From contig JAXHVD010000003.1 in NCBI GenBank assembly GCA_034189385.1, forward strand, positions 32,001 to 96,000: a stretch of 64,000 nt of DNA, in the 5' to 3' direction. The translations under genes and the position numbers were made by a program. The notes beneath the pieces were generated by a model. It searched no databases, had not been told where the DNA came from, and saw only the letters and a program-made list of their open reading frames with translations. The stretch is from Thermodesulfobacteriota bacterium. Lineage in GTDB: Bacteria; Desulfobacterota; Desulfobacteria; Desulfobacterales; C00003060. Of the stretch, positions 52,624-64,000 are shown in pieces (positions within the stretch are counted from its first letter, which is position 1; each line of letters opens with the position of its first letter).

Positions 52624-54804
52624 ATGCCAGAAGCCGCCGGACATGAAGGTGCTGCCTCCAATAGCCTGAATCAGGACGACATCTCGAAGCTCTTTGGAGA
52701 CACCGGGCAAAACGAAAAAGAGGGGGGGAGTCAGAATCGGGAAGCCGAACCGAGCCAAGACCTAGACCATGGCCCTGTTACCCCTGTCAAGTATCCAGCC
52801 GATGCTGAGGGGCTGGGCGGTGAAGATCACATGGGACAGGGAGAGAGTTTTTCAGGCGTGGACGGATCAGAAAACATTGAAGACGATGAGGTTGAAATCC
52901 AAGAGACTGAAGAACTCCTGGCCCAATTGGAGATCTTAGAAGATGAACCGGTAGACGACAACAGTCATAACGACGCAGAAGAAAATGTACCGGACAGAGA
53001 TGATGTATCTACCAGAACCGATTCTCACGAGAACCCATCATCCGAAAAAGGAGACACAACGGCCGATAAGAAGGAAAAAGGGAATAGCGAGACTGTAAAT
53101 GGCCCTGAAGTGGGGGATCAAGACGCAGAAGAACCAGAGGGCGTGACCGAGGAAGATGAGATCGACGATGACAGGGACCACGAAGGGAGCGTTGAAGAAC
53201 ACGGGGTTGATGCCGAAAGCGATAAAGCGTCTATCACCGAAGCTGGCGATCCTGAGGGTCAAGAGGCGGCTGACCATAAGAAAGACCGGACATCAGCAGA
53301 GAATCCGTTGCAAGAGCAGAAAGATAATGAGTTGTCAGAACCTAATTCCGATCAAGAGCCGTTATCCACAAAAGGGGAGAGGGAGGAAGATGAAAACCTG
53401 GAAGCGGACACCGAGAACCATGACAAAAAGGCCGAAGAGGAGGAAGACCGGGACGTCCCCGAAGTGGTGAACGAGGGAAGGCAGAACGAAGACGACATCC
53501 CCTTGAAAGAGGACGATGAGCACGTGGAAGACGAGCATCGACCAAAGAGGGGAAAAAGGTCTTTGATGCTTCTTATCGGCCTTCTCTCCTGCGTGATAGT
53601 GATGGCCGGGATGGCTGGATGGGTCCTTTATAGAAAAAGATACGTCCCTGAATCTACAAAGAAAAAAGTCCTTGCCCCTGTTCAACAAAGAAACGTCTCA
53701 GTTGGCGAGATGGAGACAGGACTGCCACAGCCCCGCCCATCCCACGTTGCCCGTGGTCCGGCCACCTTGGTGGCCAGGCTCGAGTCCAGGCTTCAGGAAG
53801 CGGCAGACCTGAGGGATGAACTGCTTATCAAGGCAGGGGAGATTGATCAACTCAAGGGCCATTTTTCTGAAAGCATCGCCAAGACAGAAAAGGAAATCCT
53901 TCAAGAGAAAAAAGCGCGTGAAATAAACTCTTACCTGCAAGCCATGAATAACAAGAAAGTCGAATTGGGGTTGCGGACCATCCAGCGCAGAGAGGCCTAT
54001 ATTCGACAACTCGATCAACCCTCGGAGTGGTTGGAAGGGGGGAGCCAAGAGCTACTTTATGTGAGGCGGAAAACCATGATTGAAATGGAGGCGAGCAAGA
54101 TTGCAGGTGACATAGACCTTGAGAGACTGATCGCCGATCTAGGGGGGGTCATCCAAAAGAACCGCCATGGTATGAACAGTCTCACCGTCGACATGGGAAA
54201 GGCCAAGCTGCATTGCCTTGAAACCATATGGACAAGACTGACTGAAGCGGACAACGGGAAGGGCAATGGCGAAACCAATACTAAAAAAAGGGTACCCAAC
54301 GGCCCACCCTTTATAACGGGCAATAGAGATAATGAAATATGGCAAGAGCTCTGCGGTGGAAATTATGCGCGAAAAGGGGAGCTGACCGAGCTTTCAGTGC
54401 CAGCGGCCAAATGTCTCTCCAGAATTGAGGTCTCGGATCTTTTCCTCAATGGGCTGATCCGACTGTCCCCAGAGGCGGCCAAACACCTGATGAAATGGAA
54501 GGGTGACTGGCTTTGCCTAAATGGCCTGAAGCAGGTTTTACCAGAGACGGGAAAAAGTCTGTTTCAATGGCCCGGCAAAGTGATTTCCCTCAATGGTCTG
54601 TCCAGATTTCCTCCCGAACTCGCTCCCCTGCTCCTGAAATGGCAGGGAACCCAGCTTGAGCTCATGGGCCTTGAACCATTAGATGATATCGGCCAACTGG
54701 CAGGGATAAAGGCCTTGGCCCAGTGGGAAGAATCGGGCGGTAAGCTTTATGTTCCTGGTAACATCAGAAAACAGATTGAAGACATCATGGGAAGGAGTGG
54801 ATGA
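52624..54804 (+). CDS. Hypothetical bitopic membrane protein: acidic disordered N-terminus, TM helix, helical domain, 24-aa LRR-like repeats
   Basis: D/E-rich ~300 aa; TM LMLLIGLLSCVIVMAGMAGWVL; repeats LxLNGL...W.G. Confidence 0.85.
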   Translation: MPEAAGHEGAASNSLNQDDISKLFGDTGQNEKEGGSQNREAEPSQDLDHGPVTPVKYPADAEGLGGEDHMGQGESFSGVDGSENIEDDEVEIQETEELLAQLEILEDEPVDDNSHNDAEENVPDRDDVSTRTDSHENPSSEKGDTTADKKEKGNSETVNGPEVGDQDAEEPEGVTEEDEIDDDRDHEGSVEEHGVDAESDKASITEAGDPEGQEAADHKKDRTSAENPLQEQKDNELSEPNSDQEPLSTKGEREEDENLEADTENHDKKAEEEEDRDVPEVVNEGRQNEDDIPLKEDDEHVEDEHRPKRGKRSLMLLIGLLSCVIVMAGMAGWVLYRKRYVPESTKKKVLAPVQQRNVSVGEMETGLPQPRPSHVARGPATLVARLESRLQEAADLRDELLIKAGEIDQLKGHFSESIAKTEKEILQEKKAREINSYLQAMNNKKVELGLRTIQRREAYIRQLDQPSEWLEGGSQELLYVRRKTMIEMEASKIAGDIDLERLIADLGGVIQKNRHGMNSLTVDMGKAKLHCLETIWTRLTEADNGKGNGETNTKKRVPNGPPFITGNRDNEIWQELCGGNYARKGELTELSVPAAKCLSRIEVSDLFLNGLIRLSPEAAKHLMKWKGDWLCLNGLKQVLPETGKSLFQWPGKVISLNGLSRFPPELAPLLLKWQGTQLELMGLEPLDDIGQLAGIKALAQWEESGGKLYVPGNIRKQIEDIMGRSG

Positions 54805-55391
54805 TGAAACAAGTTATGGGCAGCACCCGTAGAGTCTACCTCTGGGCGTTGTGCTGCTTGTTCACCATCCTGTCTTCAGATCTTGCACTGGCGGTCCATC
54901 CAACGATTTTCACCCTGCAACAAAAGATGGAACAAATCGCGTCCCTGCGTGCAAGCATTGCTGAAAAGGCTGAACAGGGGAGAAGCATTCGTCAACAGTT
55001 CAAAGAACAGATGGAGGCCATAGCCCAAGAGATCAAAGATGAGCAAGAGTGGATGGAAACGAAATCCTATGAAGAGGCCATCCAGTGCCCCCGTATTGAC
55101 TATGATCTCAGACTCCTTCAGCGGTATGATGGCTACCTGTCTGAAATCGATCGAAGGCTCAACTATTATCAGACTTTGGATGTACAGCTGGCCTACCTTT
55201 TTCAGCGGGCCGAGGATGACATGAAGATCATTGAGACATTAAATGACATGGACATAGCCGCTTTGATGATCCGGATCGACAGGGTCCTTAATGAATATCT
55301 TCCTGAAGCTGAAAAGCCGTTGATCCGTGCAAAACACCTTCGGCTGCCTCAGCACGAAGATGTGTGGAATGAAATCGTGAAGCGTTACTAA
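54801..55391 (+). CDS. Hypothetical secreted protein, paralogous to the helical domain of the upstream gene
   Basis: Signal peptide ending ALA; 4-nt overlap; by-eye alignment with the upstream protein. Confidence 0.8.
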   Translation: MMKQVMGSTRRVYLWALCCLFTILSSDLALAVHPTIFTLQQKMEQIASLRASIAEKAEQGRSIRQQFKEQMEAIAQEIKDEQEWMETKSYEEAIQCPRIDYDLRLLQRYDGYLSEIDRRLNYYQTLDVQLAYLFQRAEDDMKIIETLNDMDIAALMIRIDRVLNEYLPEAEKPLIRAKHLRLPQHEDVWNEIVKRY

Positions 55392-56819: not shown

Positions 56820-58829
56820 TCAATACAAGACGTCACTTCGAAACATCTTTTCTACAAGGCTTCTGTGATAGGACAAGTCAAAGACGCCTCTTTGATCCAT
56901 GAGCGCATAGTACTGATCCAGGGAAATACCTGTCTCAAATGACTTCAGCGTCATGCAGTAGGTCTCGTAAGGCATACTGATGATGTCGTCCAAAAGGAAA
57001 ATGGTGACCGTTTTTTCAGGCGTGAGGTCACCAGATCCTTCTGTTGCAAGCCTTTTCAAAAAGCATGAAAGGTTCAGATAATCGTGCTCGTGCATGGAAA
57101 GGAAGGCGCGATTCAACCGAGGTCGGCTGGTCTGATAAGAGCTCCTTATTCTTTGGGATCTGTCACGAAAAAGGGCCTTTTGGGTCTGCAGGGTGATCAG
57201 GTCTTCAATGAAGGGGATCCTGGAGAGCATAGAGTCATCTTGCGTGAGCTTCTTTTTCAGTTCATGGAGGAGCGCACAGTGACCTAGGGCTCTGAAAAGG
57301 TTCCCAGCTCTGGCAGTGGACATATTTGCCGCCACTTTCTCAAGGAGACCGATGACGTCTTCGCCTAGACATGCAAAAAGGATGTGAAAGAGCTCGTGGG
57401 ACTCTTCTTCCAGGCTCTTAAGCATGCCTACCAACATCTCGCATCTAAAGATGTCTTCTTCAGACAGGGCCTTGGGGGTGTATATGCAGAGATTGTCAAC
57501 TGAGAAGCTATAGTGCTCCTGGCCCCTGAGCCTTCTTGTCCAAGAGATGAGCGTATCGATGTCCCGGGGATTTTCCACATGGCTTTCCCAGTAGCCGCTT
57601 CCCACATCTGTGGACAGATGGTCGTAGTATACTCTTACGTTTGTGAGTCCACCTACAAACAGATTATGTTTCAGTCGAAAAATGTTTACAATCTCTTCCC
57701 TTAGGGCAACGTTTTTGGGGGTGGTTTCATGATATCGGCTAAAGAACAGGTATGTCTTCACCCCATGGTCGAGCCTTTTGTTGACGAGATCCAGGTTCTT
57801 TTTCAGGTCTTCAATAGAATAGGTCTTTTGATGCTTCACCTTCTGACGGCTCTCATCGTCAAAGACCTCTGGTGACATCTCAAAGAGCGGCCGGTCTTGC
57901 CTATTGAGGACGAAGAGTTCTTTGTACAGATCCAGAAACTCGGCGTCGAACAATTGCCAAGCACCGTAGTTCAGCTGAAAGGTCTTGACCAGGTCCTCTT
58001 CCCCCTTCATGGCCTCGAACAGGGCCTTTACGTAACTTCGGTCTATCTCATAACAGATGTATATTTTTCTAGTATACTCTTTTAGTTGCTTAAGGTCTGA
58101 CACAATTGCAGCAATCGATCTCGTCACCGGCTTTGTTCTGCCGCTGTGAAGCTTGAAAGCCTCACGGCTTCCTCCACAATAACGGCACCCGTACGTGCAT
58201 CCCCTGCCAATGAAGAGAGGAAATCCAAGCTTTCTTTCCAGGAACATAGTGTACAACTGGTAATCAAACAGATACCTGAGATTGGAAAAGGAAATGCTGG
58301 AAATGGTTGCCTTGTCTATGAAATAGGAGGCTTCATTGACGCCAACACCCCTTTTGTTTCTATATATAAGATTAGGGATATCGCGTACATCGGCATGGGA
58401 AAGGAGGAGCTCTAAAGGCCTTTCGGGGTCGCCCTTTACAACATAATCGACAAAGGGCCATTTCCTGATGAGCTCCTCTGCAAAATAGCTGCCTGTGAAA
58501 CCGCCGCACACGATTTTAGCCTTATGGGTCATCGCCTTTATGCGCTCACCTACCCAGTGCACTCCTTCTGCGGTTTCTTGCCAATGAAAAACCAAACCGA
58601 TATGGGTTGGGCGGAATTCTTGCAGATGATGGCCCAGGACCTCTTCCATCTCCGCCTCTTTGTAAAGGGCCAGGTTCAGGATTCTGGCCTGTCTCTTCCT
58701 GTGGTGCAGGTAGTCGCACAACCCAAAGGTCCCCATAGGAATATGGGTAAAGTGGACACTGGGACAGTTTATGATAAGCAGTCTTGGTGGCATATCCATT
58801 TTAGGGCTCAGGAATCTTTCTTCGGTCAT
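56820..58829 (-). CDS. B12-binding-domain radical SAM protein
   Basis: N-terminal GLVFHWQE / IVCGGFT / KGDPE; GRGCTYGCRYCGG; start probably ATG 58829 or slightly downstream. Confidence 0.85.
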   Translation of the reverse strand: MTEERFLSPKMDMPPRLLIINCPSVHFTHIPMGTFGLCDYLHHRKRQARILNLALYKEAEMEEVLGHHLQEFRPTHIGLVFHWQETAEGVHWVGERIKAMTHKAKIVCGGFTGSYFAEELIRKWPFVDYVVKGDPERPLELLLSHADVRDIPNLIYRNKRGVGVNEASYFIDKATISSISFSNLRYLFDYQLYTMFLERKLGFPLFIGRGCTYGCRYCGGSREAFKLHSGRTKPVTRSIAAIVSDLKQLKEYTRKIYICYEIDRSYVKALFEAMKGEEDLVKTFQLNYGAWQLFDAEFLDLYKELFVLNRQDRPLFEMSPEVFDDESRQKVKHQKTYSIEDLKKNLDLVNKRLDHGVKTYLFFSRYHETTPKNVALREEIVNIFRLKHNLFVGGLTNVRVYYDHLSTDVGSGYWESHVENPRDIDTLISWTRRLRGQEHYSFSVDNLCIYTPKALSEEDIFRCEMLVGMLKSLEEESHELFHILFACLGEDVIGLLEKVAANMSTARAGNLFRALGHCALLHELKKKLTQDDSMLSRIPFIEDLITLQTQKALFRDRSQRIRSSYQTSRPRLNRAFLSMHEHDYLNLSCFLKRLATEGSGDLTPEKTVTIFLLDDIISMPYETYCMTLKSFETGISLDQYYALMDQRGVFDLSYHRSLVEKMFRSDVLY

Positions 58830-58974
58830 TATCAAATCCAAATGCAAAAATAAATCCCCATGGGTTGGTCGGCGGGGTTGAGGACTGGCTTTTTTGCCTT
58901 GACATCCCAATAGCACCATGAGAATATATAAATGGTGTAAGACACGAATATCGGGATTGAAAAAGGGCATGGAA

Positions 58975-59046
58975 ATGAAGGGATACTATTTTAGCTACTA
59001 TTATTACCTTGGTCCGGTCGGCCCATGGCTGAAAGGAGGACACTAG
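58975..59046 (+). CDS. Tyr-rich leader peptide of the aro operon (MKGYYFSYYYYLGPVGPWLKGGH)
   Basis: ATG 58975 (alternative 58969) with AAGGG upstream; TAC TAT TTT AGC TAC TAT TAT TAC; TAG 59044-59046. Confidence 0.85.
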   Translation: MKGYYFSYYYYLGPVGPWLKGGH

Positions 59047-59111
59047 GCAGTAGCTAGTCCATAGAAAACCTTAAGCCGTGGGTAGGCCGGTCAGCCTGCC
59101 CACGGCTTTTT
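59014..59111 (+). promoter_or_regulatory. Transcription attenuator: antiterminator 59014-59030:59074-59090 versus terminator 59073-59111
   Basis: 15-bp stem AAGCCGTGGGTAGGC/GCCTGCCCACGGCTT plus T-tract; CCGGTCGGCCCATGGCT pairs with AGCCGTGGGTAGGCCGG (16 of 17, including GU). Confidence 0.85.
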
Positions 59112-59122
59112 GGTTTATAGAC

Positions 59123-59161
59123 AAAGGGTCGGGGCAAAGAGCCGCGGCCCTTTTTTATTTT
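59123..59161 (+). terminator. Second terminator-like hairpin in the aro leader
   Basis: AAAGGGTCGGGGC-AAAGA-GCCGCGGCCCTTTTTTATTTT. Confidence 0.6.
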
Positions 59162-59182: not shown

Positions 59183-60205
59183 ATGATTATTGTCATGAAG
59201 CACAAGGCCAAGGAAGAACAGATCGAAAAAGTGATTCAATGGGTTGAATCGGTTGGATATCGTGCGCACGTATCCAAAGGGGTGGAACGTACCATTATTG
59301 GTGCCGTTGGAGACGAGCGGGAAAAGGTCCGCCTGAAAGCTGCAGAAGAGATGTCTGGTGTTGAGAAGGTCATGCCTATCCTTCAGCCCTACAAGCTGGC
59401 AAGCAGGGAGACCAAAGACGGTGACACGGTCATTAAAGTGGGCGACGTGGAGATAGGAGGGCCCAAGTGTGTCATCATTGCCGGGCCATGTGCCGTGGAG
59501 AGTGAAGAGCAACTCATGGAATCGGCGGATGCGGTGAAGAAGGCTGGGGCTTCTATGTTGAGAGGCGGGGCCTTTAAGCCGAGGACCTCCCCCTACAGTT
59601 TTCAAGGTTTGGGCGAAGAGGGTCTGAAAATCCTGTCCCGTGCGCGGGAGAAGACCGGATTGCCCATCGTAACCGAGGTCATGACCGACTCGGACGTGAA
59701 GCTTATTGAGAGTTATGCAGATGTGCTTCAAATAGGGACCAGAAACGTACAGAACTTCGCTCTCTTGAAGGCCGTGGGCCATGCAAAAAAGCCTGTGCTC
59801 TTAAAAAGGGGCATGATGACCACTCTGGAAGAGCTGCTGATGTCTGCCGAGTACATCATGGCCTCTGGAAATGACGACGTGATTTTGTGTGAGAGAGGCA
59901 TTCGAACCTTTGAAACGGCCATGCGCAACACTCTCGATATCAGCGCCGTGCCTGTGTTAAAGGAGAAGACCCATCTGCCGGTCGTGGTGGACCCGAGCCA
60001 CGCCATCGGAAAATGGCGGTTTGTTCTACCCCTGGCAAAGGCGGCCGTGGCAGTGGGGGCCGACGGCCTGATTATAGAAGTCCACCCGCATCCAGAGCAG
60101 GCCCTGTCCGATGGACCTCAATCTCTGAAACCTGAAAAGTTCCATGCACTCATGGACGAGATTGAATCCATTGCTAAGATCGTTAGAAAGGGATATGGAC
60201 AGTAG
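59183..60205 (+). CDS. aroF: DAHP synthase, type I-beta with N-terminal regulatory domain
   Basis: MIIVMK..., IAGPCAVES, RGGAFKPRTSPYSFQG, QIG.RN.QNF, LCERGIRTFE, DPSH, SDGPQSL. Confidence 0.96.
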   Translation: MIIVMKHKAKEEQIEKVIQWVESVGYRAHVSKGVERTIIGAVGDEREKVRLKAAEEMSGVEKVMPILQPYKLASRETKDGDTVIKVGDVEIGGPKCVIIAGPCAVESEEQLMESADAVKKAGASMLRGGAFKPRTSPYSFQGLGEEGLKILSRAREKTGLPIVTEVMTDSDVKLIESYADVLQIGTRNVQNFALLKAVGHAKKPVLLKRGMMTTLEELLMSAEYIMASGNDDVILCERGIRTFETAMRNTLDISAVPVLKEKTHLPVVVDPSHAIGKWRFVLPLAKAAVAVGADGLIIEVHPHPEQALSDGPQSLKPEKFHALMDEIESIAKIVRKGYGQ

Positions 60206-60206
60206 G

Positions 60207-61301
60207 ATGGAGCAAATAAGGGTCCATTTGGAAAAGAAGACAGATGACTCCTATGACATCTTTGTTGGTGAAGGTATCATGGATAGCCTAGGGGCAATGA
60301 TTCAAGCCCAAGAGCCTGCCGATCAATGCATCGTCATTACAGACTCAAATGTGAATCGACTTTATGGAAAAATGGTCGAAGAAAGGCTCAGGCAAGGAGC
60401 GCTGTCCCCAGAGATTATTGAGATTCCGGCAGGCGAAGCGTCAAAATCGATGGGGGTTGTTCTTGATGTAGCCACACAACTCGTTGAGCTGAAGGCCAGC
60501 CGCAAATGTCTCCTCATTGCCTTTGGGGGTGGGGTGGTGGGAGACCTTGCCGGATTTGTGGCATCCATCTACAAACGCTCTGTGCCCTATGTCCAAATAG
60601 CGACCACCCTTGTGGCCCAAGTGGACAGCAGTGTTGGAGGCAAGACCGGTATTGATCTTCAACAAGGCAAGAATCTCCTCGGTACCTTCTATCAGCCAAA
60701 AGCGGTCTTTATCGACCTGTCATTTTTAAAGACCCTGTCTGACAGGGACTTTAAGAACGGATTGGCTGAAATCATCAAATACGGCATTATCAGAGATGGA
60801 GAGATGTTTGGCCTCCTAGAGGCTGATAAGGACCGTGTTATGGAGCGGCAACCCATGCTGATGAAAAACCTGGTGGTGCGTTCTTGCAAGACAAAGGCCC
60901 ATGTCGTGGAACGAGACGAGAAGGAGGGGGACCTGAGACGCATACTCAATTTTGGCCATACCCTCGGACACGCCCTGGAAGCCGCATCAGACTATCGGCT
61001 TTCTCACGGTGAAGCCGTGGCCATAGGAACCGTGGGGGCCTCGAAAATTTCCCGAAAACTCGATTTCCTAGATGAAGAGAGTCATGGAAGGATCGTTCAC
61101 TTAATCAAGCAGTACGGACTTCCAACCAAGATCCCACGAGGATTCAATACAGACGAACTCCTTGATTTCATGGCCAGTGACAAGAAAGTAGTAGGGACAA
61201 AGATCTACTTCGTGCTCATAAAGCGGATAGGAAACCCTTTTGTCACAGCCGAAGTGCCCACAAGCACGATCAGAGACGTGATTGAAGAGATGAAGTCATG
61301 A
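60207..61301 (+). CDS. aroB: 3-dehydroquinate synthase
   Basis: GEASK, GGGVVGDLAGF, TTL.AQVDSSVGGKTG, KN..G.F.QP, LNFGHT.GHA.E, HGEAV (start 60195 or 60207). Confidence 0.96.
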   Translation: MEQIRVHLEKKTDDSYDIFVGEGIMDSLGAMIQAQEPADQCIVITDSNVNRLYGKMVEERLRQGALSPEIIEIPAGEASKSMGVVLDVATQLVELKASRKCLLIAFGGGVVGDLAGFVASIYKRSVPYVQIATTLVAQVDSSVGGKTGIDLQQGKNLLGTFYQPKAVFIDLSFLKTLSDRDFKNGLAEIIKYGIIRDGEMFGLLEADKDRVMERQPMLMKNLVVRSCKTKAHVVERDEKEGDLRRILNFGHTLGHALEAASDYRLSHGEAVAIGTVGASKISRKLDFLDEESHGRIVHLIKQYGLPTKIPRGFNTDELLDFMASDKKVVGTKIYFVLIKRIGNPFVTAEVPTSTIRDVIEEMKS

Positions 61302-62434
61302 ACAAAGATAGCCTTAACACATATAGGGACAAGATTGATGCCCTAGACCTTGAACTCTTGAAGCTCTTAAACGACAGGGCCTCGGTGTGTCTTGACATCG
61401 CAAAGCTGAAGGCCGAAAAGGGCCTTGAGATCCATGATCCCTTGAGAGAACAAGCCGTTTTCACGTACCTGGCTCAGCACAACAAGGGGCCTTTAAAGGC
61501 TGGCGATATCGAGGAGATTTTCAAAAAGATCGTCTCCATATCAAGAAGGCTCCAATCTGCGGCTTCTGCAAACGGCCTTGGCGCCCGGGCCGAATCCGGT
61601 GAAATGGGTGCACCTTTCACGCCAACCGGCAGCACGGCTCTCTATGGGATACTGGGAAATCCTGTGGCGCAAAGCATGAGTCCCCTGATGCACAATACGG
61701 CCTTCAGACTTCTGGGTATTGATGCCCTGTACCTCCCTTTTGAGGTGAACGATCTATCCCTTGCCTTTTCCGGTATGAAGGCCCTGAACATTCAAGGTGC
61801 CAGTGTGACCCATCCCTTCAAAGAAAAGATCATCGGGCTCATTGACGAGGTCGATGATACAGCCAAGAAGATAGGAGCGGTGAACACCCTGGTTTTTGGA
61901 CAAGGGCGCGTTCGCGGTACGAACACAGATTGGGTGGGCGCTGTCAGGTGTCTTGAGGCCCTGCTTCCCGTAAAAGGACACACTTTTGTGGTTCTTGGTG
62001 CAGGCGGAGCGGCCCGGGCCGCAGTCTTTGGCATTACGAGCCATGGAGGCAAGGCCATTGTAGTAAACAGGTCCGAAGCAAAAGGACGGGCCTTGGCCGA
62101 GGAGTTCGATTCCCTGTTCGTTCCCCTTTCTGAGATCCAGGGTGTTTCCGGTGACTGTCTGGTCAATACGACCCCTGTGGGCATGTATCCGAAAACAGAC
62201 GCGCTGCCTGTGCCAAGAGAAGTCTTGGGCCGGTACAAGGCTGTGGCTGATGTCGTCTATAATCCTCTAATGACCATGCTCTTGAAGGAGGCCGAAAAAG
62301 CAGGATGCCTGGTGGCCAGCGGCTTTGAGATGTTCCTCTATCAGGGTGTTGAACAGTTTACTACCTGGACAGGGAAAAAGGCTCCTGTAAAGGAGATGAG
62401 AGATGTGGTCTACGGGAGGTTGTCGACGTCATGA
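61298..62434 (+). CDS. aroE: Chorismate mutase (AroQ class) - shikimate dehydrogenase fusion
   Basis: N-terminus R.KID.LD..LL.LL..R...K...DP.RE...SR..Q; then G.PV.QS.SP.MHN, VT.P.K, GAVNT, NTD, GAGGAA, NTTP.GM. Confidence 0.92.
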   Translation: MNKDSLNTYRDKIDALDLELLKLLNDRASVCLDIAKLKAEKGLEIHDPLREQAVFTYLAQHNKGPLKAGDIEEIFKKIVSISRRLQSAASANGLGARAESGEMGAPFTPTGSTALYGILGNPVAQSMSPLMHNTAFRLLGIDALYLPFEVNDLSLAFSGMKALNIQGASVTHPFKEKIIGLIDEVDDTAKKIGAVNTLVFGQGRVRGTNTDWVGAVRCLEALLPVKGHTFVVLGAGGAARAAVFGITSHGGKAIVVNRSEAKGRALAEEFDSLFVPLSEIQGVSGDCLVNTTPVGMYPKTDALPVPREVLGRYKAVADVVYNPLMTMLLKEAEKAGCLVASGFEMFLYQGVEQFTTWTGKKAPVKEMRDVVYGRLSTS

Positions 62435-63693
62435 GGCCAATTCAACCGACGAGAGATATCCGTGCCAGCATCCGTGTGCCAGGGTCGAAAAGCTATACCC
62501 AAAGGGCCCTGATTGTGGCTGCCCTGGCAAGAGGCCACTCTTTGATTACAGGCCCCCTGTTTTCCGAAGACACAGAGCACCTGATAAAGGCCCTCGGCTC
62601 CTTGGGCGCCCAGGTCAGGCCCCAAGGCCCTGACCTGACCGTGGTGGGGACAGGAGGAAATGTAAGGCGCCCCTCTGGGCCGATCTATATGGGAAATAAC
62701 GGCACGGGTCTGAGACTCCTGACCGGCACGGTCACTCTTGGACAGGGAACCTTTGTCCTTGACGGCAACGATCGCATGCGCCAGAGGCCGATCCAACCCC
62801 TGGTCGACGCCTTAAATGAGCTGGGGGGCGAGGTCTCGTGCAGAAAGAAGAACGGCTGCCCCCCTGTGGAGGTCGTAGCAAAAGGGCTCGGGGGTGGAAA
62901 GACTACCCTAGCAGGAGGGCTTAGCAGCCAGTATCTCTCCTCTCTTCTTCTGGCCGCTCCCTGTGCCAGAGGGGACGTTCGGATCGAGGTCCTGGGCTCC
63001 CTTCCGTCACGGCCCTACATTGACATGACCCTGGATGTGATGGAGCACTTTGGCGCAGAGGTGTCCCTGTTGGATGAGAGGTCTTTCCTGGTCAGGGCGC
63101 CTCGGGCGTATCGGGCCAGTGAGTACGCCGTAGAAGGTGATGCCTCCAGCGCCACCTATTTCATGGCCGCTGCTGCCATCTGTGGGGGCACTGTAAGGAT
63201 AGACAATGTCAGCCCCGATTCTGTCCAGGGGGACCTGCGGTTCACCCATATTCTTGAGACCATGGGATGCCGGCTGGGGAGATCAGACAAGGGATTGGAA
63301 ATCACAGGCCCATTGTCTTATCACGGAGATCTTTCTTTCGACCTTCATGATGTACCTGATATGGTCCCGGCCCTTGCCGTGGTTTGCGCCTTCAGGAAGG
63401 GGAAAACCGACCTTGAGAACATCGGGCACCTTCGTATCAAGGAATCGGACAGGATCGCCGCCCTGACTCAGGAGCTCAGAAAGATCGGGGCCACAGTGGA
63501 AGAGAAGGAAGAGGCCATGGTAATCCAGGGCCTGGCCACCCGAGGAGGCGAGATAGACTCTTATGACGATCACCGTATTGCCATGAGTTTTGCTATAGCG
63601 GGCCTGGCTATTGAGGGCGTCGTTATCAAGGCTCCTGATTGTGTGAAGAAATCCTTTCCCGATTTCTGGGATAAGCTGGAGTCTCTTGGTTGA
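62431..63693 (+). CDS. aroA: EPSP synthase
   Basis: PGSKS, GN.GT.LR, RP, SSQYLS, EGDASSA, KESDRI, DDHRIAM, KSFP.F. Confidence 0.97.
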   Translation: MRPIQPTRDIRASIRVPGSKSYTQRALIVAALARGHSLITGPLFSEDTEHLIKALGSLGAQVRPQGPDLTVVGTGGNVRRPSGPIYMGNNGTGLRLLTGTVTLGQGTFVLDGNDRMRQRPIQPLVDALNELGGEVSCRKKNGCPPVEVVAKGLGGGKTTLAGGLSSQYLSSLLLAAPCARGDVRIEVLGSLPSRPYIDMTLDVMEHFGAEVSLLDERSFLVRAPRAYRASEYAVEGDASSATYFMAAAAICGGTVRIDNVSPDSVQGDLRFTHILETMGCRLGRSDKGLEITGPLSYHGDLSFDLHDVPDMVPALAVVCAFRKGKTDLENIGHLRIKESDRIAALTQELRKIGATVEEKEEAMVIQGLATRGGEIDSYDDHRIAMSFAIAGLAIEGVVIKAPDCVKKSFPDFWDKLESLG

Positions 63694-63702
63694 AAGGAAG
63701 CC

Positions 63703-64000
63703 ATGAAAAAGAAACCTACGATCCTGGTCATTCACGGCCCGAACCTGAATATGCTGGGGCGGCGCGAGCCGACCTGGTATGGCCGTGCCACGCTGGAGGA
63801 GATCGATGCTTCGATCAAGGAGGCCGCCCAAGAGGTCGGTATGACAGCAGAGACGTTCCAGTCCAACTATGAGGGGGCCATCGTCGAGAAGATCCACCAA
63901 GCCATTGAGACATGCGACGGGGTGATCATTAACCCGGCAGCCTATACCCACACCAGTGTGGCCATAAGAGACGCCCTCTTGATGCTGGATATTCCGATTA
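63703..64000 (+). CDS. aroQ: Type II 3-dehydroquinate dehydratase, truncated by the window end
   Basis: Manual translation: [25 protein letters not shown]...FQSNYEG...[17 protein letters not shown]. Confidence 0.95.

Follow-up and report, generated by a model that had tools for sequence, protein, structure and literature searches.

In the trpL and pheL leaders of E. coli, a leader ORF, an antiterminator overlapping the 5' arm of a terminator, and a U-tract serve one amino acid and one branch operon each. The enterobacterial his leader is wired as a chain, A:B/C:D/E:F versus B:C/D:E, in which C:D is an intermediate switch hairpin and only the last hairpin terminates. The leader described here, which lies 5' of the chorismate-pathway genes of an uncultured Desulfobacterales bacterium, shares the three parts of trpL and pheL and, with hisL, a predicted chain in which one pairing frees a strand that disarms the next hairpin. 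Unlike hisL, it has U-tracts on both of its hairpins and carries codons for other amino acids and, unlike all of these leaders, it has no Rfam match. A run of cognate codons is a further likeness to hisL in the available parts of PMC3896937 and PMC9291695, and the general mechanism of attenuation is set out in the accessible sections of these and other papers (PMC3223726, PMC5864092, PMC4833913, PMC4615214).

Leaders with aromatic codons before aroF are also on record. In C. glutamicum, the F-Y-F leader aroR precedes aroF and responds to Phe and not to Tyr, according to the accessible sections of two papers (PMC11802643, PMC4046766). As here, Phe and Tyr leader codons lie 5' of a DAHP synthase operon, and stalling raises transcription there. 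Going by its description, aroR, which belongs to another phylum, differs from our leader family, in which the run has 6 to 13 codons, is dominated by Tyr and usually includes Trp, and is followed by two hairpins with U-tracts. A conserved F-Y-F core was not found: the window copy reads YYFSYYYY, and F-Y-F occurs in some relatives only. Stav et al. (2019) predicted uORF-12 and uORF-13 as 'aromatic amino acid attenuators' in Firmicutes; these likewise combine an F/Y-rich uORF with a terminator, and about half of the uORF-13 examples precede aroF, but their published description, in the part available, differs in host (Firmicutes and environmental sequences), in an F-Y-F in the P1 loop and in a single terminator stem (PMC6429828). 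Brewer et al. (2021) proposed uORFC-13-1, also a uORF with a terminator before aroF, as an attenuator in Acholeplasma; in the accessible part of that paper it differs from our leader in having Phe only, with 24 examples from Acholeplasma and environmental sequences (PMC8632094). Some environmental members of the uORF-12/-13 or Brewer et al. sets could overlap the present family. A table in a Shewanella study (PMC2659441) enters aroF as 'attenuator sensing tyr-tRNA' and refers for this to an E. coli paper of 1980, and the rimP leader has a tandem terminator with an antiterminator in the accessible portion of PMC2965389. The first-pass annotation of this DNA therefore overstated the novelty of a Tyr-sensing aroF leader, as Phe/Tyr leaders before aroF had been described in C. 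glutamicum and predicted in Firmicutes, as far as the available parts of those sources go.

A literature search, which covered few subscription papers and not Lopatovskaya 2010, found no description of this leader element in Desulfobacterota; within the same coverage of subscription papers, it found no two-terminator relay in a leader-peptide attenuator. Lopatovskaya 2010 reportedly covers deltaproteobacterial attenuators. The mechanism is thus textbook and has published relatives before aroF, so the surprise is moderate; here it takes a predicted double-stop form common to an order. By its sequence features, the leader very likely works like hisL, pheL and aroR, and it falls outside every Rfam family.

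The window that we analysed is a stretch of 64,000 nucleotides from a genome (G000) that is 90% complete. Downstream of the leader, on the plus strand, NCBIfam matches confirmed the gene order aroF-aroB-CM/aroE-aroA-aroQ that had been read from the letters: aroF, a class I-beta DAHP synthase (59183-60205; PRK08673 and TIGR01361 above cut-off); aroB, 3-dehydroquinate synthase (60195-61301; TIGR01357 above cut-off); a fusion of a chorismate mutase-like domain to shikimate dehydrogenase, CM-aroE (61298-62434; TIGR00507 above cut-off, with chorismate mutase models matching residues 1 to 88 below the NCBIfam cut-off); aroA, EPSP synthase (62431-63693; TIGR01356 above cut-off); and aroQ, type II dehydroquinase (63703-64000; below cut-off, the gene being cut by the window end). 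By eye, the next ORFs, outside the window (G000:C23:96165-97749), look like aroK and aroC. Transcript data, a small share of one RNA run, gave a single 229-nt contig of about 99% identity inside aroF and none over the leader, a result that speaks neither for nor against the switch. On the other side of the leader, a gene of about 670 residues resembling B12-binding radical SAM proteins (56820-58829, minus strand; below all NCBIfam cut-offs) points away from it, and we attribute a long minus-strand frame from 58970 to an extension of this gene. As the upstream gene is divergent, the terminator at the leader closes no upstream gene. Farther upstream (52624-55391, plus strand), the window encodes two neighbouring proteins, one of 726 residues, which has a hydrophobic segment and whose N-terminus is long and acidic, and one of 196 residues; neither has an NCBIfam match.

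A sigma-70-type promoter is predicted at 58899-58927 (plus strand), with a -35 TTGACA (58899-58904), a 17-nt spacer with TG at 58919-58920, and a -10 GAATAT (58922-58927); transcription would start near 58934. The first-pass annotation did not have this promoter. A consensus promoter scan did not list this site, and the call rests on genus conservation: TTGACA lies 5' of the control codons in 23 of 23 leaders of the genus, at a distance of 80 to 103 nt in 22 of them, and the genus promoters mostly have TGn ahead of an A2/T6 hexamer. The remaining one, L025, has a deletion that removes the -10 box and the start codon, which may be a mutation or an assembly error. A likely ribosome-binding site, AAGGG (58963-58967, plus strand), lies 7 nt 5' of ATG 58975, where the leader ORF MKGYYFSYYYYLGPVGPWLKGGH begins (58975-59046, plus strand; 23 codons, stop TAG at 59044-59046).

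The first-pass annotation had described this ORF correctly as one of 23 codons with 6 Tyr and 1 Phe in 8 codons, but had placed its start at 58969; that alternative in-frame ATG, two codons earlier, gives 25 codons. An ATG three codons ahead of the aromatic run recurs in several relatives. The control codons, Tyr-Tyr-Phe-Ser-Tyr-Tyr-Tyr-Tyr, occupy 58984-59007 (plus strand). Such a run is exceptional in this genome: among 8.27 million six-frame codon windows only 7 have at least 7 aromatic residues in 8 (one of them crossing a stop codon), and of these 7 only the one at this leader has more than one Tyr. A Trp codon at 59026 falls outside the run, within the antiterminator strand. It was rejected as an activating codon, since in masked folds a ribosome stalled there covers that strand, so a stall would favour termination. 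A 42-codon ORF from ATG 58918 was also rejected because its start lies within the predicted promoter spacer, and no role is claimed for a GGAGG within the leader ORF, since only 22 of 58 leaders contain one.

The antiterminator strand (segment 2; 59014-59036, plus strand) lies inside the leader ORF and can pair with 59068-59090. A recount of 59014-59030 against 59074-59090 gave 13 Watson-Crick pairs, 3 G-U pairs and 1 G-A mismatch, and so reproduced the 16 of 17 first counted. The strand that it captures belongs to predicted terminator 1 (segments 3:4; 59073-59111, plus strand), for which a 15-bp stem (59073-59108) with a U-tract had been claimed; 15 pairs were found, 10 of them G-C (dG -30.4), with U5 at 59107-59111. 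The leader has a short uORF with codons for end products of the pathway and a predicted terminator between it and the first gene, two features of ribosome-mediated attenuators. Could the ORF have arisen by chance in TAT-rich intergenic sequence, next to an ordinary terminator? Terminator-like sites are expected by chance once per 1.1 kb, but the duplex between the leader and the terminator arm (-36.0 kcal/mol) compares with -20.5 +/- 3.0 in dinucleotide shuffles, of which 0 of 2,000 reach it. With the unique Tyr-rich run, conservation across the order and a divergent upstream gene, so that no gene ends at the leader, the probability of a chance arrangement is negligible. On the features of the sequence, we hold with strong confidence that the leader is a ribosome-mediated transcription attenuator.

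Conservation was examined in the genus and beyond. An aroF ortholog is present in 32 of 37 genomes of the genus, and 30 loci were examined; 23 have an aromatic uORF, 2 have less than 50 nt of upstream sequence, 1 has 288 nt without a uORF, and 4 lack the uORF. In a draw of 401 genomes from the phylum, 135 had an aroF match, and an aromatic uORF precedes aroF in 29 of the 29 best non-self loci, which come from other families. The proposed search for conserved uORFs was therefore positive at both depths. In one relative, L011, there is a premature stop within the antiterminator strand. Four loci with long upstream sequence (L007, L012, L014, L015), together with L054, have lost the uORF and retain remnants of the hairpins; an unrelated 285-codon gene abuts these remnants in L012, L014, L015 and L054, and a different upstream gene is found in L007. 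With promoter and uORF gone, the shikimate operon of these five would appear to sit behind terminators with no visible switch. The alignments leave out the aromatic ORF of L014, which is 3' of its hairpins, and most of L031 to L074 as duplicates or distant loci (6 were kept); A3 excludes the training-genus matches L150, L153 and L169, and the antiterminator cross-test excludes L074.

Among the 58 aligned leaders, Tyr occurs in the run of all 58, Phe in 55 and Trp in 54, with all three in 51, and the window copy is one of only 4 without Trp. Judged by its codons, the leader family is tri-aromatic and not Tyr-only; the term 'Tyr-sensing' suits the window copy, with its 6 Tyr and 1 Phe, and does not describe the family as a whole. 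The runs of the genus vary synonymously (TAT 81, TAC 39, TTT 44, TTC 7, TGG 19). Paired changes, which the first-pass annotation had proposed to look for, are seen in both stems: terminator 1 is 95.7% paired, with changes on both sides at 6 of 10 pairs; for the antiterminator the figures are 83% and 7 of 14. These counts cover related sequences in 58 rows, so that the changes are not independent events. Mismatches in the antiterminator concentrate at one position, unpaired in 35 of 58 rows, and another, unpaired in 17, which amounts to poor tracking of the changes in terminator 1. The two structures as wholes are 91.8% and 85.5% paired, against 30 to 52% for slid controls.

A covariance model built from the leader matched 100 of 121 genomes of the order (E <= 1e-5), the weak matches among which may be other attenuators. 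The 27 best matches outside the training genus all have runs with Tyr and Phe, and 19 have Trp in the matched part. Behind them lie 25 genes for ADH synthase, identified by the N-terminus (4 confirmed with TIGR01949), and 2 for class I-alpha DAHP synthase (confirmed with TIGR00034), which suggests that the leader follows the first step of the pathway rather than one gene family. The antiterminator core is read in the same frame (VCP/VGP) in 55 of 58 aroF leaders and in a shifted frame (GLP) in 20 of the 27 others; hence, the RNA is constrained and the distal peptide is not.

These observations bear on whether the switch senses tRNA charging at all. A small protein or arrest peptide could be the sensor, or a protein or small RNA could drive the switch, and equilibrium folds, which give no OFF state unless timing is invoked, lend this some support. 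However, the N-terminal peptide is free to change, the distal part is read in more than one frame, and conservation is confined to the aromatic codons; the identity of leader codons in this genome follows the gene (Trp before trpE-like, Phe before aroF-pheA, Leu before leuA-like). Nor did the searches of the genome find a T-box, TrpR or TyrR. T-box RF00230 had 0 matches in G000, in a search that was positive in 5 of 14 control genomes, and for TrpR/TyrR-type HTH proteins there was no match to TIGR04381 or PF01371 in the 90%-complete genome; PF18024 gave 6 weak, generic matches, one of them borderline. A TyrR-box-like site was not found near the promoter, the one example lying 23 kb away at chance level. 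A search of the whole window against Rfam gave nothing at the gathering score. The 13 weaker matches near the leader fall far short of the threshold, and Phe_leader, Trp_leader and His_leader, which stay below the gathering threshold, are not among them. We therefore regard sensing by a route other than tRNA charging as very improbable.

Folding with a masked ribosome footprint shows how charging could be read. With only the 5' arm of terminator 1 exposed, the antiterminator of the window forms with a probability of at least 0.97 whichever control codon is in the A site; with the A site at 59011-59035 the probability is 0, by construction of the mask. With a ribosome on the first control codon, an antiterminator of at least 7 bp forms in 52 of 58 leaders and a shorter one in 6. 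The folding of both conformers suggested in the first-pass annotation thus supports an antiterminator with the ribosome on the control codons, but at equilibrium one of at least 7 bp also forms in 46 of 58 leaders without any ribosome, and in 41 of 58 behind a ribosome at the stop codon (0.59 for the window with an 18-nt footprint). The OFF state must therefore rest on timing. As the complete terminator 1 wins at equilibrium in every ribosome state of the window, the switch must be kinetic. A post-stop strand (59049-59057, plus strand) is predicted to pair with control codons 58991-58999 and so to close a protector fold (58980-59072; dG -29.1), which the antiterminator outcompetes at equilibrium; protector-like folds appear in several of 14 relatives.

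From the anatomy, conservation and gene context of the leader we infer translation, stalling, termination and a relay between hairpins, in the following order. RNA polymerase would start near 58934, and a ribosome would load at 58975 or 58969. When Tyr-tRNA (or Phe-tRNA) is short, the ribosome would wait on 58984-59007, and 59014-59036 would capture 59068-59090 before the 3' arm of terminator 1 exists. The freed 3' arm (59095-59111) would then capture the emerging 5' arm of a second hairpin, so that neither stop forms and aroF to aroC are transcribed. When charged tRNA is plentiful, the ribosome would cross 59011-59046 while the terminator arms are being synthesised and terminator 1 would form; polymerases leaking past it would meet hairpin 2 as a second stop. 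Most relatives would respond to Trp as well, and the window copy would not. That the leader attenuates the whole chorismate-pathway operon in this way, a stall on Tyr/Phe codons freeing the antiterminator and one pairing being predicted to open two successive terminators, we consider quite probable. Attenuation of the trpL/pheL/hisL type, as first proposed, is strongly supported by conservation, frame, pair counts and gene context, but the proposal had neither the double terminator nor the tri-aromatic family.

A model with one antiterminator and one terminator holds for both of those parts but is incomplete, since a predicted second terminator follows: hairpin 2 (segments 5:6; 59123-59161, plus strand) has a stem at 59123-59153 (dG -21.1) and a U6-A-U4 tail. 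The relay would pair its 5' arm with the 3' arm of terminator 1 (segments 4:5; dG -21.7), an energy that 63 of 2,000 shuffles reach. In the window, with the nascent end at 59140 and the ribosome on Tyr1 to Tyr5, the best fold combines antiterminator and relay; across the 58 leaders this combination is the equilibrium fold in only 21. Hairpin 2 is 87 to 89% paired and the relay 85 to 91% paired in the 58 sequences; in 27 out-of-sample leaders the relay is 96.6% paired, a figure that leans towards pairing as these hits were picked and aligned by the model.

A rival reading is a plain single-terminator attenuator, with hairpin 2 an old tandem copy of terminator 1, or an mRNA-stabilising or translation-related hairpin, and the 4:5 pairing a by-product of near-palindromic stems common to both. 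The 5' arms of hairpin 2 and terminator 1 are alike, so cross-pairing is expected from duplication alone, and the 3' arm and U-tract of hairpin 2 can pair with the aroF ribosome-binding site (-12.6). Comparisons between sequence families argue for more than this. Cognate relay duplexes average -15.3, -15.9 and -13.9 in three families (the last value weakened by an arm window that began too early for L121, L123 and L147), against -5.9 to -11.5 across families and -6.5 +/- 3.8 for unrelated hairpins, and terminator 1 and hairpin 2 stay matched across at least four sequence versions. Within families, however, cognate and non-cognate pairs are equal (-15.3 versus -15.1; -15.9 versus -15.4), as the single-terminator explanation would have it, so the relay signal reflects a few shifts between lineages. 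Two variable relay positions change together between groups: the genus mostly has GC:GC, other families have AT:AT, and the remainder of the order has AC:GT. A C-C mismatch interrupts the relay in 7 of 20 genus loci. Hairpin 2 has a U-rich tail in 44 of 58 leaders and internal covariation, whereas 14 of 58 fail the threshold, being weak or lacking a U-tract. Of 209 terminator-like hairpins in the genome only 4 form tandem pairs, and all 4 lie behind aromatic leader ORFs (this leader, trpE-like, aroF-pheA and paaK-like) with a relay of -12 or lower (background 9.4%). Taking these points together, we think the single-terminator explanation unlikely, if by some way the most serious of the alternatives, and the modelled relay of hairpin 2 somewhat favoured.

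It is also conceivable that hairpin 2 is the main regulated terminator and that terminator 1 is mostly an intermediate switch hairpin, as is C:D in his. The chain 2:3, 3:4, 4:5 and 5:6 is indeed wired in a his-like way, and in the family of aroF-pheA paralogs the U-tract is short on several first hairpins and longer on the second. However, terminator 1 is followed by a U-rich tail in the window and in almost every aroF leader, is stronger in the window than hairpin 2 (-30.4 versus -21.1), and is present in four loci where hairpin 2 is absent (L009, L013, L019, L074). This explanation appears distinctly doubtful, and a relay that opens two stops remains our preferred reading.

Other leaders of the same genome, whose genes were named by eye, carry Trp before trpE-like, Leu before leuA-like and Ile/Val before cimA-like genes. 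A Phe-rich leader with a GRFFF core (G000:C34:167788-168060, minus strand) lies before a 626-residue aroF-pheA-like fusion; it has two cross-pairing hairpins of different sequence and recurs at 19 of 20 fusions examined in the genus (in L119 the upstream bases are masked). A four-Trp leader with two cross-pairing hairpins (relay -25.1; G000:C34:168210-168390, plus strand) precedes a trpE-like operon divergent from aroF-pheA. A Trp-rich leader (G000:C56:42809-43040, minus strand) stands before a third DAHP synthase gene; by eye, only five further loci have a Trp leader at this paralog (L133, L141, L142, L148, L149), 3 of the 16 others in the genus and 2 of the 4 from other families, which makes the three-leader arrangement patchy. 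A link between loss of Trp from the run and a Trp-led paralog was considered and is not clean, as G015 has both by eye. L151 (G000:C17:38030-38250, plus strand), a Phe-rich leader of the same two-hairpin family, is some 390 nt upstream of a gene resembling phenylacetate-CoA ligase, a hint that Phe may be made from phenylacetate. A Leu-rich leader before the leuA-like gene (G000:C56:72120, minus strand) has two hairpins in its fold, and an Ile/Val-rich leader before the cimA-like gene (G000:C10:77303, minus strand) has one terminator.

Read jointly, these leaders may mean that the Desulfobacterota have a portable relay attenuator with two terminators, both of them true intrinsic ones, which a single stalled ribosome opens serially. 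Its tri-aromatic version would gate class I-beta and class I-alpha DAHP synthase and archaeal-type ADH synthase, entry enzymes that are unrelated or distantly related; genomes such as this one would have three DAHP synthase genes under separate leaders, rich in Tyr, Phe and Trp respectively, and so an RNA-level equivalent of the AroF/AroG/AroH isozymes of E. coli that involves no repressor protein. We give this wider reading an even chance. If true, it would explain how aromatic amino-acid synthesis is controlled across an order of sulfate-reducer-type bacteria other than by the TyrR, TrpR and T-box systems, none of which was found in this genome, and a large RNA family absent from Rfam would be gained. 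The leader would also be a test case for whether serial terminators under one switch widen the dynamic range of attenuation, and for whether a long Tyr run makes an attenuator tyrosine-responsive, given that the F-Y-F leader of C. glutamicum did not respond to Tyr in the accessible part of PMC11802643. For annotation, the leader would mark ADH synthase genes as the working pathway entry in the genomes that have them.

Short ORFs rich in aromatic codons also occur ahead of aroF in Gribaldobacteria, Peribacteria, Peregrinibacteria and Clostridium oceanicum (L066, L070, L071, L072). In a member of the Nitrospinota and in three unclassified genomes (L056, L057, L060, L073), the sequence upstream of aroF holds a leader of another type, in which a short ORF region is combined with a long GC-rich hairpin and a single terminator.
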